From a phage, in the NCBI GenBank assembly GCA_014686985.1, contig GCA_014686985.1_3627.1: a stretch of DNA of 64,000 nucleotides, one strand, 5' to 3'. Position numbers and translations under genes: made by a program. Shown here piece after piece: positions 2,078 through 58,541 of this stretch (within the stretch, counting starts at the first letter, position 1; each line of letters begins with the position of its first letter). Under the pieces are notes generated by a model. That model ran no database searches and was not told the DNA's origin. It saw nothing but the letters and a program-made list of their open reading frames with translations.

Positions 2078-2106
2078 CGCCCCGCCATTGTGCGGGGTTT
2101 TTATTT
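2078..2106 (+). terminator. rho-independent terminator
   Basis: GC hairpin CCCCGCCATTGTGCGGGG followed by TTTTTATTT. Confidence 0.6.
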
Positions 2107-2250
2107 CTATCCTACGAATAGCGCCCATGGTTGGCCCCACAAACGCCATAAAAGCCCCTACCTATGCAATCCCCTTTCTTAACCTGAAAACAGCGTCTAG
2201 GGCCGTTTTATGGCGTTAAAAATGTTATTGACAGTAATTTTATTTAAAGC

Positions 2251-2279
2251 TTGACACCTTGGAATAGTCCGGATATACT
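2251..2279 (+). promoter_or_regulatory. sigma70-like promoter
   Basis: TTGACA 2251-2256, 17-nt spacer, TATACT 2274-2279. Confidence 0.6.
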
Positions 2280-2307
2280 GACCACATCAAAGCAAGGAGG
2301 AAACGCC

Positions 2308-2568
2308 ATGCGTAAATTGAAAAATTTTGATAAGGTAGATGTAGTACTGAATAATTTTTACTACTGCAATAATAAAGCCGTTTGGTGGCGTGATAGTTCC
2401 ACCGATAAAGTTAAGGCGCGCTTTCTCCAAGGGCACTGGCAAGGCCGTCCAGTGATTAAAATCATGGGGCAATTGGTAGCGTTTAAAAATTGCCGCCGTG
2501 TTGATGACGTTGAAGAGATTTTAAGCATTTTGCGCCACAATAATTTAAAAAATAGTGTTGACAAGTAA
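2308..2568 (+). CDS. hypothetical protein (86 aa)
   Basis: ATG 2308 preceded by CAAGGAGGAAACGCC; track start 2251 lies inside the promoter. Confidence 0.6.
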   Translation: MRKLKNFDKVDVVLNNFYYCNNKAVWWRDSSTDKVKARFLQGHWQGRPVIKIMGQLVAFKNCRRVDDVEEILSILRHNNLKNSVDK

Positions 2569-2585
2569 ATCTCGATAAGTATACT
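2558..2585 (+). promoter_or_regulatory. sigma70-like promoter
   Basis: TTGACA 2558-2563 overlapping the upstream stop, 16-nt spacer, TATACT 2580-2585; followed by hairpin GGCGGGAAAACTTCCCGCC 2596-2614. Confidence 0.6.
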
Positions 2586-2642
2586 TAAACACACAGGCGG
2601 GAAAACTTCCCGCCACTAACAAAGAAAATAGGAGAAAATATC

Positions 2643-3266
2643 ATGACCACCGTTAACATTACCACAGGTTACAATTTATCTTTCGACGTGCTGACCGATG
2701 AACAAAAAGAAAAAGCTATTGAAATGGTCCGCGAAAGAGAAGAACACAGCGGGGATAACTTTTTTGCAGAAAGTGTAATTGAAGACTATAAAGAACATAT
2801 CTTTCCAGAGTATGGCCTTGAAGATACCAAGGTACATTGGTCCGGCTTTTGGTGCCAGGGCGACGGCGCGTCAATCAGTGCGGAAAACGTGGATTTAGAA
2901 AAATTCTTGCGTAAAGTCAAGTCTCTGACTAAATTCCGCTCAATTCGTCACTTGTTCGGCACAATGCACGATGGCGAGCTATCCGCAAGTGTTGAGCGTG
3001 ATCCATATAGCCGCTATAGTCACGAAAACACTGTAAGCGGGTACATCGATACTACATGGCTAGACCTGACAGCCAAGCAAGAAAGTAAGGTTGAAGAGCT
3101 GGAAGAGCTGATCACCGAGACGGTACGGGAGCTATCCCGCAAGGTTTATGTAGACCTGGAGGAGGCCTATCTTGAACAGTTTACTACCGAAAACCTGATC
3201 GGCCTTATTGAAGCCAATGATTGGCGGTTTAATGTGGATGAATATGGGGAGATGAGTTTTTCATAA
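2643..3266 (+). CDS. hypothetical protein (207 aa)
   Basis: ORF track; RBS AGGAGAAAATATC before ATG; acidic. Confidence 0.65.
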   Translation: MTTVNITTGYNLSFDVLTDEQKEKAIEMVREREEHSGDNFFAESVIEDYKEHIFPEYGLEDTKVHWSGFWCQGDGASISAENVDLEKFLRKVKSLTKFRSIRHLFGTMHDGELSASVERDPYSRYSHENTVSGYIDTTWLDLTAKQESKVEELEELITETVRELSRKVYVDLEEAYLEQFTTENLIGLIEANDWRFNVDEYGEMSFS

Positions 3267-52537: not shown

Positions 52538-52612
52538 GCCCTGTTAGCTTAGTGGATAAAGCAGCGGCCTTCTAAGCCGTTGACACTGGTTCGAGTCCAG
52601 TACGGGGTGCCA
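52538..52612 (+). tRNA. tRNA-Arg(UCU): tRNA-Arg (anticodon UCU)
   Basis: hand-folded cloverleaf: acceptor GCCCTGT/ACGGGGT, D-arm GCTT...AAGC, anticodon loop CTTCTAA, T-arm ACTGG-TTCGAGT-CCAGT, CCA encoded. Confidence 0.8.
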
Positions 52613-52616
52613 AATT

Positions 52617-52703
52617 GGGGAGTTATCCCGTAGAGGTAGCGGTGTAGACTGTAAATCTATTGTCATTGCGACTCGGGTGGTTCGACTCCACCACTCCCCA
52701 CCA
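52617..52703 (+). tRNA. tRNA-Tyr(GUA): tRNA-Tyr (anticodon GUA), class II
   Basis: acceptor GGGGAGT/ACTCCCC, anticodon loop CTGTAAA, long variable arm, T-arm GGTGG-TTCGACT-CCACC, CCA encoded. Confidence 0.75.
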
Positions 52704-52817
52704 AATTTATATTTTTAGATGCATAAATAATACAGATAATGGCATTGATATTTATCGTCGTTTATACTAGTCACTAACTGCTCGAAAATCAGTGTCATTA
52801 TCAGTATAATTTATAAA

Positions 52818-52908
52818 GGAGGGTAGGGAGCAATGGTGCTCAAGCGGTCTTGAAAACCGTCCCGTTGAGGATGACTCGATGATGGTTCGATTCCATTACT
52901 CTCCGCCA
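52818..52908 (+). tRNA. tRNA-Ser(UGA): tRNA-Ser (anticodon UGA), class II
   Basis: acceptor GGAGGGT/ACTCTCC, anticodon stem GCGGT/ACCGT with loop CTTGAAA, long variable arm, T-loop TTCGATT, CCA encoded. Confidence 0.7.
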
Positions 52909-53006
52909 CATTGTTGACCTTGTAATTAAGCGAAAGCCGGAAGCAGAACCGGATTATCAAATGTTACAGTCGTCATCGCCGACTAGCAACATGGTCAACA
53001 TACTGA

Positions 53007-53105
53007 GCTAGGTAAGCCCTTTGGCAAGGGCGAGGATTTTTAATCCTGAAAATAGACGAGGTAGTCGTTGAATACATAGGTGGTTCGATTCCATCGCCTA
53101 GCACC
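53007..53105 (+). tRNA. atypical tRNA-like element (99 nt; anticodon arm irregular, about 30-nt variable region)
   Basis: intact acceptor GCTAGGT/GCCTAGC, D-arm GCCC...GGGC and T-arm GGTGG-TTCGATT-CCATC; AGGA-TTTTTAA-TCCT arm would give anticodon UUU (Lys) but with a mismatch and an over-long variable region. Confidence 0.45.
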
Positions 53106-53110
53106 TTTTT

Positions 53111-53186
53111 GCTGATGTAGCACAATCGGTAGTGCAATTGATTTGTAATCAATAGGTTGTAGGTTCAAGTCCTGCCATCAGCACCA
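53111..53186 (+). tRNA. tRNA-Thr(UGU): tRNA-Thr (anticodon UGU)
   Basis: acceptor GCTGATG/CATCAGC, D-arm GCAC...GTGC, anticodon stem ATTGA/TCAAT with loop TTTGTAA, T-loop TTCAAGT, CCA encoded. Confidence 0.8.
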
Positions 53187-53187
53187 A

Positions 53188-53263
53188 GGCCCTGTAGCTG
53201 GAAGGTTCAAGCAAGCGACTCATAATCGCCAGACGGTGGTTCAATTCCACCCAGGGCCACCAA
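53188..53263 (+). tRNA. tRNA-Met/Ile2(CAU): tRNA with anticodon CAU (Met or lysidine-modified Ile2)
   Basis: acceptor GGCCCTG/CAGGGCC, anticodon loop CTCATAA, T-arm GGTGG-TTCAATT-CCACC, CCA encoded. Confidence 0.75.
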
Positions 53264-53273
53264 ATAGTAAATA

Positions 53274-53350
53274 CTCCGCGTAGCTCAGCTTGGTAGAGCG
53301 CCTGATTTGGGATCAGGAGGTCGAGTGTTCGAATCACTCCGTGGAGACCA
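53274..53350 (+). tRNA. tRNA-Pro(UGG): tRNA-Pro (anticodon UGG)
   Basis: acceptor CTCCGCG/CGTGGAG, D-arm GCTC...GAGC, anticodon stem CCTGA/TCAGG with loop TTTGGGA, T-arm GAGTG-TTCGAAT-CACTC, CCA encoded. Confidence 0.8.
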
Positions 53351-54170: not shown

Positions 54171-54454
54171 GAGTTGCCACACTGTTTATTGCGTGCTTGT
54201 TATTATGTGGGTGTGCAACCAGCGTTGAGAGAGAATACAATATTGACCCTCCGGATGTAGGAAGGTTGATTGTTAAACCCCCAGAAGGTGCCATGAAACC
54301 ACCTGCTAAAGCTATGCCTTTGAAGAAAGGTGCGCCAGATGCAGTGAATTCTGGCATTATGAGGGATAATAATCTGTCTTGTAGCAATGATAGAGCTAAA
54401 TTGATCATTTTGCAAGACTATATTAGAACACTGTTTCCAAAGGAGAGAGGTTAA
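54167..54454 (+). CDS. o-spanin-like outer-membrane lipoprotein (Rz1-type)
   Basis: signal peptide with lipobox LLLCGCA, Pro-rich mature region, 95 aa. Confidence 0.55.
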   Translation: MRVATLFIACLLLCGCATSVEREYNIDPPDVGRLIVKPPEGAMKPPAKAMPLKKGAPDAVNSGIMRDNNLSCSNDRAKLIILQDYIRTLFPKERG

Positions 54455-54879
54455 TGTCTAAGATTTACGGACCGTGTTCTGAAAAGCAGAAGATGATCCT
54501 CGAAAACGATGCAGATATCTTGGTAATCGGCGGTGCAGCAGGGTCTGGCAAGTCGTTCCTCTTGCAGTTGATGCCACTTAAAATTATTGATGACCCCCAC
54601 AGCTCTGTGGTTATGTTCCGAAGAACAACCCCACAGTTGGAAGGTGAGGGTGGACTATGGCCTAAAGCAGTAGCTATTTATAGTGATCTGCCTGAAAACA
54701 TTAAGCCAAAGTTCAGAGAGAAGGATCATAAGTTCATTTTTCCACGGTTTGATCCGAACACTGGTAAGTGGGATAGAAGCAAAAAGGGAGCTGTTGTAAA
54801 ATACTGCCATATGGAGTATGTACAAGATAAGCTTAACCATCAGGGGCTTGAGTACACCATGGTTTGCTTCGACGAGGGT
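54454..54879 (+). CDS. terL: terminase large subunit, exon 1 (ATPase N-terminus)
   Basis: Walker A GGAAGSGKS, Walker B MVCFDE; reading frame ends at ...FDEG immediately before the proposed 5' splice site. Confidence 0.7.
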
Positions 54880-55762
54880 TAATTTGTAGCTCTCGTAAAA
54901 CCTCCCTAATTGCGGGGAAATCTTTATTATTGACACCACCAACCTGTTATGGTAACATAATAGAGGCTTCGAAGAGAGATCGAAGGTATGGTAACAGTGT
55001 GTTAATTTAGATAATCCGCAGCGAAGCATCCGAGAGGATGAACGTTCAACGACTAGTCGAAAGACGTAGAATCAAGCGATTCGAAACGGGAGGGTGAATG
55101 TGTAATACTAAAAAATGTATGGATTGCCAAAGAGTTCTGCCCATTGATGATTTCTTTTTATCATCTAAGAGCAAGGATGGATACTCAGGTACATGCAAGG
55201 AATGCTATATGTACTACAGGAAGGGTGGATCTCGTAAAAACAAAAATATGGTTAAGAGAGATGACGCAGCATTGTTTATTCAAGACTTGCTGAAGAAAGG
55301 TGAACTTTTTGAATGCAAATCTTGTCATGAAAGTATGCTCGCTGATAGTTTTTACACAAAACGTGACTATGGTAAAGTATATCTGGTTACGAACAGGTGT
55401 AAGATGTGTGAAAAGTTTTATCAGATTGAGAAGAAATTTCACATAACAAAAGATGAATACTATCGTCTACTCTCAGATCAAGATCATAAGTGTGCCATTT
55501 GTAGAATATCTCTTAATGAGTATAGGACGCAAGGGTACAGAGATTTCTTTTGTGTTGATCATGACCATAAAACTGGTGCTGTAAGAGGGTTGCTTTGTGA
55601 TAAATGCAACAGAGCTTTAGGTTTCTTCCAAGAAGATGAGGAAACTATTCTTAGAGCGGCAGAGTATTTACACATTCATAAGATATAGTCTGGTCTGCAT
55701 GGAGACATGCAGCTGCCTGAAAATGGCGGGGCAAGACTAGCGACCTTGCCCGAACATAAACG
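54880..55762 (+). mobile_element. candidate group I intron interrupting terL (carries an HNH homing endonuclease ORF)
   Basis: exon end CGAGGGU can pair with intron GCUCUCG (54889-54895) giving a P1 helix with U-G at the splice site; intron ends in G at 55762; 3' part contains AGACUA and the 5' part contains the complementary UAGUC (P7-like). Confidence 0.6.
55098..55688 (+). CDS. HNH homing endonuclease (Endo VII-type fold)
   Basis: CAICRISL...FCVDHDHKTGAVRGLLCDKCNRALG; RBS GGGAGGG; located inside the terL intron. Confidence 0.75.
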   Translation: MCNTKKCMDCQRVLPIDDFFLSSKSKDGYSGTCKECYMYYRKGGSRKNKNMVKRDDAALFIQDLLKKGELFECKSCHESMLADSFYTKRDYGKVYLVTNRCKMCEKFYQIEKKFHITKDEYYRLLSDQDHKCAICRISLNEYRTQGYRDFFCVDHDHKTGAVRGLLCDKCNRALGFFQEDEETILRAAEYLHIHKI

Positions 55763-56884
55763 ACACAATTCGAATGGGAGCAGATAGACTATCTGATGTC
55801 TCGTCTGCGATCTCAGTCAAAGTATCCATCAAGAATGGTTATCAGCTGTAACCCCGATTCAGAACACATGCTTGCCAAACTGGTTAGATGGTGGTTGGAC
55901 GATGAAGGGTATCCAGATCCGGAGAAATGCGGTAAGAAAAGATATTTTATCCGACGCGACGGTGAATTTATATGGGGAGACTCTAAAGAAGAGTTGATAG
56001 AGAAATACACCACGGTTAACGGACTGGGTGTGGAGATCAAGCCAAGACCGTTGTCATTCTCGTTTATAGGCGCAACAATATTCGATAATCCTGTCTGCTT
56101 AAGAGACAACCCAGAATACCTTGCTTTCCTTGAAGGTCTGCCGGAACTGGAAAAAGCTCAGCTTCTTCATGGTAACTGGTTTGCAAAGCCTGAGGGTGCA
56201 AACTATTTTCAAAGATCTTTCCTTCGTGATGCCGATAGAGTACCTCTTGGATCAGTATCTTGCAGGGCATGGGATAAGGCAGGAACCGAGAGAACTTCCG
56301 GTAATAAATTTCCTGACTTTACCGCCAGTATTAAGGTAAGTAAAGATAGCGACGGCTTTTATTACCTGTCCGGTGATTATTGTCCTGAGAACGTGGATGA
56401 AGGGAGGTATTCCACAGGTCTGGAAGGCAAGTTCTGTAAAAAGGCTGGTGAACGAGATGTGATCATCAGGAAACAGGCGCAGTTTGATGGTGATGATTGC
56501 ATAATCGTCTTCTCTGTGGACCCAGGGCAGGCAGGTAAGAGTGAGTTCTTAACCTCCTCCAGATCCTTGCTTGCCGAAGGGTTCAGGGTTGAAGAAGACC
56601 CAATGCCTTCCAACAAGTCTAAACTGACAAGGTTCTCACCTTTTGCCAATCTTGCCCAACAAGGAATGGTGAGGATTGTAAAATCCAGTTTCCATCCTGA
56701 TACTCTGGAAGCATTTCTGACTGAACTTGAAAAATTCAACGGGGAAAGATCAACATTTAACAGAAAAGACGACTGGGCCGACTGCGTAGCTTCTGCGATT
56801 AATTTCCTAGAGAAAGAGGAGGTAGCACTTCCTTGTGTGATTCCATCAATCTCATCACCTTCTATGTTCAAGCGTTTTATCTAA
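55763..56884 (+). CDS. terL: terminase large subunit, exon 2 (coupling motif and nuclease domain)
   Basis: in-frame continuation TQFEWEQIDYLMSRLRSQSK...MVISCNP aligns with T4 gp17 region following Walker B; LLHGNW later. Confidence 0.65.
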   Translation, partial: TQFEWEQIDYLMSRLRSQSKYPSRMVISCNPDSEHMLAKLVRWWLDDEGYPDPEKCGKKRYFIRRDGEFIWGDSKEELIEKYTTVNGLGVEIKPRPLSFSFIGATIFDNPVCLRDNPEYLAFLEGLPELEKAQLLHGNWFAKPEGANYFQRSFLRDADRVPLGSVSCRAWDKAGTERTSGNKFPDFTASIKVSKDSDGFYYLSGDYCPENVDEGRYSTGLEGKFCKKAGERDVIIRKQAQFDGDDCIIVFSVDPGQAGKSEFLTSSRSLLAEGFRVEEDPMPSNKSKLTRFSPFANLAQQGMVRIVKSSFHPDTLEAFLTELEKFNGERSTFNRKDDWADCVASAINFLEKEEVALPCVIPSISSPSMFKRFI

Positions 56885-56984
56885 GTGTTGCCAATCTTAA
56901 CTAGATGTGGTACAATAAAGTAATTGGAGATACTAGCCCTCTGACGAGGGCTATTTTGTTATACTGTTTTGAGGGGTAAAGCTT

Positions 56985-58541
56985 GTGTCCAAAAAGAACC
57001 GCAGGAAACACAACGCCACAGCCAAAACTGTGAATAAATCTGGGAACGCAGGCGCACCAACTCATAATGTTCGTATGAGTGAGATCGGTTCTGGCGCACT
57101 TTCCCAAATTATGGCAGAATCGCAATCTATGATGGTTGAGGAATTGCGTTGGCCTCAGCTGATTGCCACAGTGGAGACTATGAAATGTGATTCCACAGTT
57201 GCTACTGCCTTAGATACAAAATATGTTTTCATCACGAAAGCATTCAATGATTTTAAGATCCTTTATAATGTTAAAAGTGAAGACTCTAAGAAAGCTGCCG
57301 AGCTTATAGAGTATTCTTTGCGTAATTTGGCAAACCAACAAACTCTTCGAGATATTGCAAGAAGCGCAGCTACCTTTAACGAGTATGGTTTTTCACTGTT
57401 TGAGAAAGTATACCGCAGAGAGAAAGAAGGTAAATATGCCGGGATGCTTCTTATTGATAAAATTGCATTCCGACCTCAGGCCAGTCTGTCCAGATCAGAG
57501 CCGTTTGTTTTTGACAAGAATAGTAGAACACTGACAGGTATTTATCAGTCACCTAATGCATTTCTAAACACTCAGAATGCACGCTGGGCTGGACCTCTTG
57601 CTGCAATGCCTTCAAAAGGCTTTAATGAGCCTGAAATTTTCATCCCTGCTAAAAAGCTTATGCTCATGACCCTGTCAGGAACAGAATCTAACCCTGCAGG
57701 TGTGTCACCGATGATAGGTTGCTACAGATCTTTCCGTGAGAAAGTTCTGATTGAAAACCTTGAGGTTGTTGGCTGTTCCAAAGACCTTGGTGGTGTGCTT
57801 GAGCTGAAAATTCCTTCCAATATTTTGAACAAGGCCAGCATTGACCCGAATTCAATGGAAGGGAGAATGGTTGCAGATCTTATGCTTGACGCAGCAAACG
57901 CCCATAGTGGTGAGCAAAGTTTCTTTATACTTCCGTCTGATAGAGATAAGTCTGGTAAAGAGCTTTACTCCATGACCCTGAAGGGGGTTGACGGTATGGG
58001 TAAGCAATATTCCACTAAAGATTTGATTGATGCCCGTAAGAAGGCGATTCTTGACCGTTTCGGTGCTGGCTTTATTAACCTCGGTAACGATAACGTTGGA
58101 TCCTTCTCTCTGTCTGAATCAAAACAGTCTATCCATGGTCATTTTGTTCAGCGTGATATAGATATTATCACTGAAGCCTTCAATAAAGATCTTATTCCAC
58201 AGCTTCTGGCATTGAATGGTATCATCCTTGAAGATGATGATATGCCTAAACTGAAACCTGGTCTGATTGAAGAGGTGGACATGGAGAGCTTCTCCAAGTT
58301 TGTCCAGAGGATCGGTGCTGTAGGTTACTTGCCAAAAACTCCTGCAGTAATTAATAAGATTCTTGAAGTAGGTGGGTTTGATGAAAGATTTGACGAGGAC
58401 ATGGATCAGGAAGAGCTGATGAAGCTCTTGGGCCAGGACATCAGTAGAGCTGGTGATGGAATGGCTGCAGGATCCACTGGTAACGGCACTTCTAAGATGT
58501 CATCAACCAGAGATAATTCCATATCCAACATGGAAAATTAA
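56985..58541 (+). CDS. putative portal protein (518 aa)
   Basis: GTG start 56985 after GAGGGG RBS; size and position immediately after terL; no motif-level confirmation. Confidence 0.5.
   Translation: MSKKNRRKHNATAKTVNKSGNAGAPTHNVRMSEIGSGALSQIMAESQSMMVEELRWPQLIATVETMKCDSTVATALDTKYVFITKAFNDFKILYNVKSEDSKKAAELIEYSLRNLANQQTLRDIARSAATFNEYGFSLFEKVYRREKEGKYAGMLLIDKIAFRPQASLSRSEPFVFDKNSRTLTGIYQSPNAFLNTQNARWAGPLAAMPSKGFNEPEIFIPAKKLMLMTLSGTESNPAGVSPMIGCYRSFREKVLIENLEVVGCSKDLGGVLELKIPSNILNKASIDPNSMEGRMVADLMLDAANAHSGEQSFFILPSDRDKSGKELYSMTLKGVDGMGKQYSTKDLIDARKKAILDRFGAGFINLGNDNVGSFSLSESKQSIHGHFVQRDIDIITEAFNKDLIPQLLALNGIILEDDDMPKLKPGLIEEVDMESFSKFVQRIGAVGYLPKTPAVINKILEVGGFDERFDEDMDQEELMKLLGQDISRAGDGMAAGSTGNGTSKMSSTRDNSISNMEN

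Follow-up and report, generated by a model that had tools for sequence, protein, structure and literature searches.

The 64,000-nucleotide (nt) stretch of phage DNA analysed here (the window; GenBank assembly GCA_014686985.1, contig GCA_014686985.1_3627.1) comes from an rV5-like Escherichia coli myophage of the genus Vequintavirus (98-99% identity to inoa, rV5_ev168 and WalterGehring), in which the gene for the large terminase subunit (terL; its product, TerL) is interrupted. Judged from its sequence, the interrupting segment (54880-55762) is very probably a mobile group I intron of a type common in phages, which carries an endonuclease gene of its own and would be spliced out to give a TerL of 515 amino acids (aa). 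For rV5-like phages this is a known feature, both in annotation and in print, and there is nothing new about it as such. An initial annotation, made from the letters of the window only, had proposed a self-splicing group I intron with an embedded homing endonuclease, a reading that is supported by the match to the Rfam group I model (RF00028), by the uninterrupted terL of relatives and by the resemblance of the embedded protein to endonuclease VII (Endo VII).

The frame of exon 1 runs into a stop codon (TAA, 54880-54882) directly after 54879, and the frame of exon 2 is open from 55760 and reads, from 55763 onwards, TQFEWEQIDYLMSRLRSQSK...VISCNP, which places the insertion point straight after the Walker B codons (…FDEG|TQF…). 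Joining 54879 to 55763 (GGT|ACA) yields 1548 nt and 515 aa, with a predicted junction of GACGAGGGT|ACACAATTC, also written GACGAGGGU-ACACAAUUC. The annotated terL genes of the phages FV3 and nimi, which are uninterrupted, have precisely this length, and the conceptual splice product is collinear with them codon for codon (513/515 and 514/515 residues identical), and a junction-spanning peptide of 125 aa finds one uninterrupted match in each of FV3 and nimi (100%) and ECP32 (99.2%). Since the intron-less terL genes of FV3 and nimi exist for comparison, the intron boundaries are fixed. The places that the initial annotation had given for the end of exon 1 (54879), the embedded open reading frame (ORF; 55098-55688) and the beginning of exon 2 (around 55763) all agree with the sequence; its junction and its length of about 515 aa were exact, and the alignment to intact terminases that it had suggested as a check came out in frame and without any difference in length.

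On the protein level, the Pfam profile Terminase_6N covers residues 25-294 of the spliced product in one stretch through the junction (E 6e-20) and Terminase_6C covers residues 394-489, the C-terminal nuclease domain (E 5e-6). Both hallmarks of a T4-type terminase (PF03237 / PF17289), the Walker A/B ATPase and the RNase H-like nuclease domain, are thus found in one spliced polypeptide. Comparison of this polypeptide to solved structures with phmmer returned no terminase, only chance hits (E > 0.4), so that the alignment of residues to T4 gp17 depends on the Pfam profile match only. The exact spliced sequence is absent from NCBI, which is uninformative, as the sister TerLs differ by 1-2 residues. 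terL is essential, and carriers of the insertion (WalterGehring, rV5) are plaque-forming isolates. Two other explanations of the interruption were ruled out, namely an intein, because the insert contains stop codons in all frames, and a sequencing or assembly artefact, because the arrangement recurs in more than 30 independent genomes. From end to end, the region 54300-57000 shares 98-99% identity with inoa, rV5_ev168, nomo, WalterGehring and some 25 other phages (JES2013, 97.9% across the terL region).

Ribozyme core and predicted splice sites

The covariance scan that had been proposed as a further check gave a match to RF00028 that spans the intervening sequence and covers the full length of the model (54870-55712, model positions 1-253, 48.1 bits, E 1.6e-10), which is well beyond chance. 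The same core in its ORF-less, 319-nt form scores 84-85 bits (E ~1e-20), above the curated cut-off of 50 bits, and blastn finds the core to resemble known introns of T4-type, Twort-type and phiKZ-type phages. The features that define the RF00028 group are present, i.e. the core itself, the U-G pair in P1, the terminal (omega) G together with a restored reading frame, the P3-P7 pseudoknot, and conservation of the helices among alleles. Coordinates of the exons, the intron and its elements are given in the table below.

Table. Position of the terL exons, the group I intron and its parts in the window
Feature	Coordinates	Strand	Description
terL exon 1	54454-54879	+	142 codons, with GGAAGSGKS as Walker A and MVCFDEG as Walker B; phase 0, last base the U of GGU
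Group I intron (probable)	54880-55762	+	883 nt; 319 nt in ORF-less alleles
P1	54873-54879 / 54889-54895	+	exon CGAGGGU with guide GCUCUCG; guide from the 10th intron base
P3, 5' strand	54901-54906	+	CCUCCC; pairs with 55088-55093
P4 and P5 region	54910-55021	+	P4 54912-54916/55015-55019; P5 54920-54923/55009-55012
P6a hairpin	55027-55040	+	CAUCC-GAGA-GGAUG
P7, 5' strand	55051-55055	+	GACUA (preceded by C: CGACUA 55050-55055); pairs with UAGUC 55686-55690; from the covariance model
P7.1	55056-55065	+	GUC-GAAA-GAC; between P7 and P3'; assigned by sequence
P7.2	55069-55082	+	GAAUC-AAGC-GAUUC; between P7 and P3'; assigned by sequence
P3, 3' strand	55088-55093	+	GGGAGG; pairs with 54901-54906
P8, 5' strand	55094-55105	+	GUGAAUGUGUAA; 12-bp stem with 55668-55679, -14.4 kcal/mol
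Homing endonuclease gene (putative)	55098-55688	+	196 aa; inside the P8 loop
P8, 3' strand	55668-55679	+	UUACACAUUCAU; from folding
P7, 3' strand	55686-55690	+	UAGUC; inside the conserved AAGAUAUAGUCU
P9	55695-55712	+	followed by hairpins at ~55713-55729 and ~55729-55751 (to 55751)
Omega G	55762	+	last intron base
terL exon 2	55763-56884	+	373 codons and stop; begins TQFEWEQIDYL

As the initial annotation had predicted, the last exon bases can pair with a guide shortly inside the intron, with a U-G pair at the 5' splice site (duplex energy -11.5 kcal/mol), and the intervening sequence ends in G. Its P7 was half right: UAGUC does form the 3' strand, while the AGACUA that had been named as its partner is the wrong copy, the true strand being the GACUA found by the covariance model. 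There are just two copies of the hexamer AGACUA itself, one in exon 2 (55786) and one in a peripheral hairpin on the 3' side, of which it occupies the loop (55734). The P7 in the table aligns to that of the model and lies next to the conserved AAGAUAUAGUCU, and would presumably bind the guanosine cofactor.

P5 has a long, branched extension (including the hairpin 54944-54951/54956-54963), and the interval between P7 and the 3' strand of P3 (P3') carries an insertion of 29 nt relative to the Rfam consensus, which holds two stem-loop sequences, P7.1 and P7.2. In an unconstrained fold P7.2 forms and P7.1 does not, 55042-55067 being paired otherwise. Hairpins of this kind between P7 and P3' are a subgroup IA-type feature in the classification of Michel and Westhof. 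The intron has extra 3' hairpins and, perhaps, P7.1/P7.2, and it is without P2. No second intron was found by an Rfam scan of the whole window at a permissive threshold.

The P8 loop and its putative homing endonuclease

The ORF in the P8 loop matches the Pfam family Endonuclease_7 (PF02945, 76.7 bits, E 1.3e-21) as well as several PHROG endonuclease VII families, and its solved relatives are Hpy99I (3fc3; ORF residues 57-192, E 1e-5) and T4 Endo VII (1e7d; aligned to Endo VII residues 8-68, E 1e-4), which bears out its description in the initial annotation as an Endo VII-type nuclease. It contains three zinc modules of the form CxxC...CxxC (residues 7/10 with 33/36, 73/76 with 101/104, and 132/135 with 167/170), the last of which frames the Endo VII / His-Me finger motif (C132/C135, D154-H155-D156-H157, C167/C170 and N171; residues 154-171 read DHDHKTGAVRGLLCDKCN, and the start codon is at 55098-55100). 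NCBI already contains this exact 196-aa protein, listed under various names. Most substitutions in the ORF are synonymous (6:1 and 5:3), from which it seems that the endonuclease is under selection. A tblastn search of the window with the endonuclease gave no close paralogue. On the minus strand, an ORF of 201 aa (39201-39806) has an Endo VII-like CLDHDHLTGRCRGVL motif that is not followed by a CxxC, and resembles the intron endonuclease only weakly in tblastn (E 0.012). The adjacent ORF on the same strand (39758-40387), whose end it overlaps, may, from its sequence, be a RuvC-like resolvase.

An ORF of this family need not be a homing endonuclease. T4 gp49, a Holliday-junction resolvase, shows what else an Endo VII-type protein can do, and HNH proteins encoded next to the terminase can aid packaging, as in the HK97-like phages (Kala et al. 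2014, as cited in a passage of PMC7344957). That the ORF at 55098-55688 would be such a resolvase or packaging-accessory protein is nevertheless highly improbable, given that phages without the intron lack it, as do alleles with an ORF-less intron, at an identity of 98-99% otherwise, that it lies inside a ribozyme loop, and that the solved protein nearest to it for the greater part of its length is the sequence-specific restriction enzyme Hpy99I. The additional zinc modules are also of a kind that site-specific relatives have, and the copy in JES2013, which falls into one 90%-identity cluster with the ORF of the window, was placed among the intron-encoded homing endonucleases by Fang et al. 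(2018, PMC6083498), who define the family of homing endonucleases with an Endo VII motif. An ORF of at least 95% identity is carried by 30 records, while alleles with an ORF-less intron or with no intron at all also exist; the intron-bearing records with a match to 80% or more of the intron number ~53. Being optional among near-identical genomes, the ORF fits a homing endonuclease gene and not an essential packaging factor or resolvase.

Six intron-bearing alleles (97-99% identical) were compared in order to follow the substitutions in the ribozyme. The segment 55096-55677 is present only in the alleles that carry the endonuclease; in naam, rV5 and RudolfGeigy there are 18 nt instead, which form the hairpin UAAGCG-GUUGUUGU-CGCUUA. 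The two P8 sequences are unrelated (GUGAAUGUGUAA/UUACACAUUCAU versus UAAGCG/CGCUUA), and yet the helix forms at the same place in both. Outside this replacement, the ORF-less copies differ from the window at 1-3 positions only (in naam the core is identical, with one base of the 3' tail as the single difference). All eight substitutions in the ribozyme parts are compatible with the structure. Two of them make up a compensatory change, from 54948 U / 54959 A to C / G in the hairpin 54944-54951/54956-54963, three others exchange a Watson-Crick pair for a wobble pair or the reverse (54961, 55670, 55751), the one at 55061 turns GAAA into GAGA and so keeps a GNRA tetraloop, and two are at unpaired positions (55721, 55758).

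These comparisons also bear on the alternative that the initial annotation had left beside the intron, i.e. that a free-standing endonuclease was inserted and that two TerL halves are made separately. The insertion would then stay in the RNA, and a polypeptide of residues 1-142 would assemble after translation with a second one that starts from the methionine codon at 55796, much like NrdA of phage Aeh1, which is split by mobE and of which the polypeptides assemble after translation. The stop codon straight after exon 1 and the ATG-initiated ORF 55796-56884 would allow this, many GenBank records do annotate two terminase fragments, and split phage genes that are not spliced exist (as cited in a passage of PMC7344957). 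However, the ORF is enclosed by a complete group I core, relatives keep the intron at the same site even where it has no ORF, and the substitutions preserve the RNA helices. A start at 55796 would moreover lose the 11 codons of TQFEWEQIDYL, which intron-less phages share without change and which are also conserved in KpS8 and CB7, and the GGGAG before this ATG ends some 15 nt away from it, which is a poor spacing for a Shine-Dalgarno sequence. Two separately made halves are therefore regarded as very unlikely, and removal of the segment by splicing as the far better explanation.

The anatomy of the ORF suggests a conflict with the ribozyme. The only Shine-Dalgarno-like sequence before the endonuclease ATG is GGGAGG (55088-55093), which is the P3' strand; the AUG lies in the 5' strand of P8, the stop codon is the UAG of the P7 strand UAGUC, and the last eight codons overlap the 3' strand of P8, J8/7 and the 3' strand of P7. 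In this layout, translation of the ORF would compete with folding of the ribozyme on each transcript, and the two are probably mutually exclusive on any one of them. A near-consensus sigma-70-like sequence (TTGACA-17-TAACAT, with TG) is located at 54930-54958 in the P5 extension, 140 nt 5' of the endonuclease ATG. Promoter-like sites are not enriched in the region (11 versus 8.3 ± 2.8 in shuffles), and the site at 54930-54958 is also present in the ORF-less alleles.

Related introns and the case for splicing

The closest known counterparts are in the same group of phages. In WalterGehring (BASEL collection, MZ501111), terL is annotated as a two-piece join of these same exons around a 'putative homing endonuclease', and inoa, nomo, rV5_ev168, JES2013 and APECc02 have the same arrangement. 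The WalterGehring intron also has 883 nt and the same 196-aa ORF (terL region 98.4% identical over 2431 aligned nt); between the two introns there are 10 point differences, among them the compensatory 54948/54959 pair. In rV5 itself (DQ832317), the terL coding sequence 'ORF64ABC' is a three-piece join. The gene, the insertion site and the core are the same as in the window, the 5' 216 nt being identical and the 3' 85 nt differing at two positions, whereas intron 1 of rV5 is the ORF-less, 319-nt form, and rV5 has a second terL intron with a different HNH gene. The rV5 introns were described by Kropinski et al. (2013, PMC3606486) in a section entitled "Introns in terminase", in which D. Shub is thanked for the intron location. 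The intron boundaries in the BASEL collection paper were set through comparative genomics, and for LL12 an intron in terL is predicted in the genome announcement.

More distant systems share parts of the design. The DNA polymerase introns of SPO1 and SP82 belong to subgroup IA and have the HNH endonucleases I-HmuI/II in P8. Together with the td, nrdB and nrdD introns of T4, they resemble the intron of the window in the AAGAUAUAGUCU block of J8/7-P7, in the putative P7.1/P7.2 and in having an ORF in a peripheral loop, and differ from it in host gene and in the branch of the His-Me finger nucleases. F-CphI shares the catalytic motif of the window ORF (CxxC, DHxH, CxxC-N), but is free-standing beside an intron, whereas the window ORF lies within the P8 loop and has two additional N-terminal zinc modules.

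A group I intron with an HNH gene in terL is also found in Lactobacillus phage LL-H and Pectobacterium phage CB7. That of CB7 (382-1350 of the compared CB7 sequence), for which splicing was demonstrated by RT-PCR (PMC7344957), interrupts the same Walker B segment, but 6 nt upstream (D|E, compared to G|T in the window), its core (35 bits) is another one, and its HNH protein is unrelated. Being a different intron, its RT-PCR supports the case of the window by analogy only. From these positions and sequences, the Walker B segment of terL has been invaded independently at least twice within the Vequintavirinae. A core match in phiTE had been considered as a Certrevirus terL intron as well, and was rejected because it proved to be the intron of nrdA.

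A number of points weigh against a spliced intron in the window. Its own copy scores 2 bits under the curated RF00028 cut-off of 50 bits, although this shortfall can be traced to the 582 nt that are inserted in P8. P10, of ~3 bp, is weak, and covariation support is thin at 97-99% identity, amounting to one compensatory pair and the P8 swap. The only terL intron in the subfamily for which splicing is proven by RT-PCR is that of CB7, a different one; the rV5, BASEL and LL12 literature reports no splicing assay for a Vequintavirus terL intron, and the literature found contains no RNA or biochemical proof of splicing or endonuclease activity for the intron of the window.

Probable homing, exon flanks and genomic context

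The proposed course of events is as follows. The pre-mRNA would fold into the P1-P9 ribozyme, free guanosine would attack after U54879, the 3'-OH of exon 1 would then attack after G55762, and the ligated mRNA would encode the 515-aa TerL. The nuclease, when translated instead, most likely cuts the intron-less terL of co-infecting relatives close to the insertion site, upon which recombinational repair would transfer the intron, together with neighbouring exon bases, to the cut allele (i.e. homing).

The exon flanks agree with such a course. All six intron-bearing alleles read …GAGGGT|ACACA(A/G)…, while both intron-less alleles examined read …GAGGGC|ACGCAG…. Position -1 is thus U in every intron-bearing allele and C in the intron-less ones, and a T at this position is needed because the U-G pair of P1 uses it. 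Over the 1548 nt of the gene, nimi and the window differ at 19 positions, four of which lie within 13 nt of the junction, all four being synonymous. In a wider survey, in which 84 nt of flank were compared for 60 of the 105 matching records, every sampled intron-less allele was at least 4/84 nt away from the intron-type flanks, whereas the intron-bearing alleles differed by 0-2. This pattern fits co-conversion of the exon flanks, cleavage-resistant intron-less sites, or both.

Whether the intron is more than a passive parasite is a matter of speculation. Ribosomes on the ORF would have to unfold the ribozyme core, which would make TerL production and endonuclease production mutually exclusive, and the amount of TerL, or the time at which it appears, could then depend on the balance between splicing and endonuclease expression. 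The synonymous variant GGC|ACGCAG, which all sampled intron-less alleles carry, could for its part be a cleavage-resistant site, selected for in an arms race with the Endo VII-type enzyme. Such readings are conceivable, but on the whole rather doubtful.

A second group I intron occurs in terL of rV5, HdK5 and RudolfGeigy, at a position where the window has none (56079/56080; ACA AT|A TTC, peptide GATIFDNP, 1.2 kb downstream of the first). It exists as an ORF-less form of 268 nt (95.6 bits, RF00028) and as a form of 982 nt that carries another HNH gene, which is bIL170-like (positions 1517-1784, 1517-2498 and ~2078-3059 of the compared sequences of the relatives). The phage of the window is thus a potential recipient of this second intron.

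As for the surroundings of terL, its start overlaps the stop of the o-spanin gene (TAATG, 54452-54456), which suggests translational coupling. Just 5' of the lysis and terminase genes lies a cluster of tRNA genes (52538-53350: Arg-TCT, Tyr-GTA, Ser-TGA, Thr-TGT, Met-CAT and Pro-TGG), for which ARAGORN also made an odd call with a four-base anticodon (53007-53105, without an Rfam counterpart). On the 3' side of terL there is a promoter-like sequence (TTGCCA-17-TACAAT, 56888-56916), followed by a strong terminator hairpin (56934-56953; the rV5 record annotates a terminator) before the portal gene at 56985. Among the public records, 18 that are labelled as phages of Campylobacter jejuni (MG065635-MG065690, 'Campylobacter phage C15, A12a, A116…') are ~98% identical to the E. 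coli vequintaviruses in this region, and their host labels look doubtful.

The current understanding of group I introns or of terminases remains unchanged by this case. Its value is first of all one of annotation, in that automatic callers break the essential terL into two "terminase" fragments and a "recombination endonuclease VII", whereas the right product would be a single TerL of 515 aa, made after RNA splicing. Beyond this, the vequintaviruses form a natural homing series, which runs from an intron-less terL, via an ORF-less intron, to an intron with an Endo VII-type endonuclease, in genomes that are 97-99% identical.

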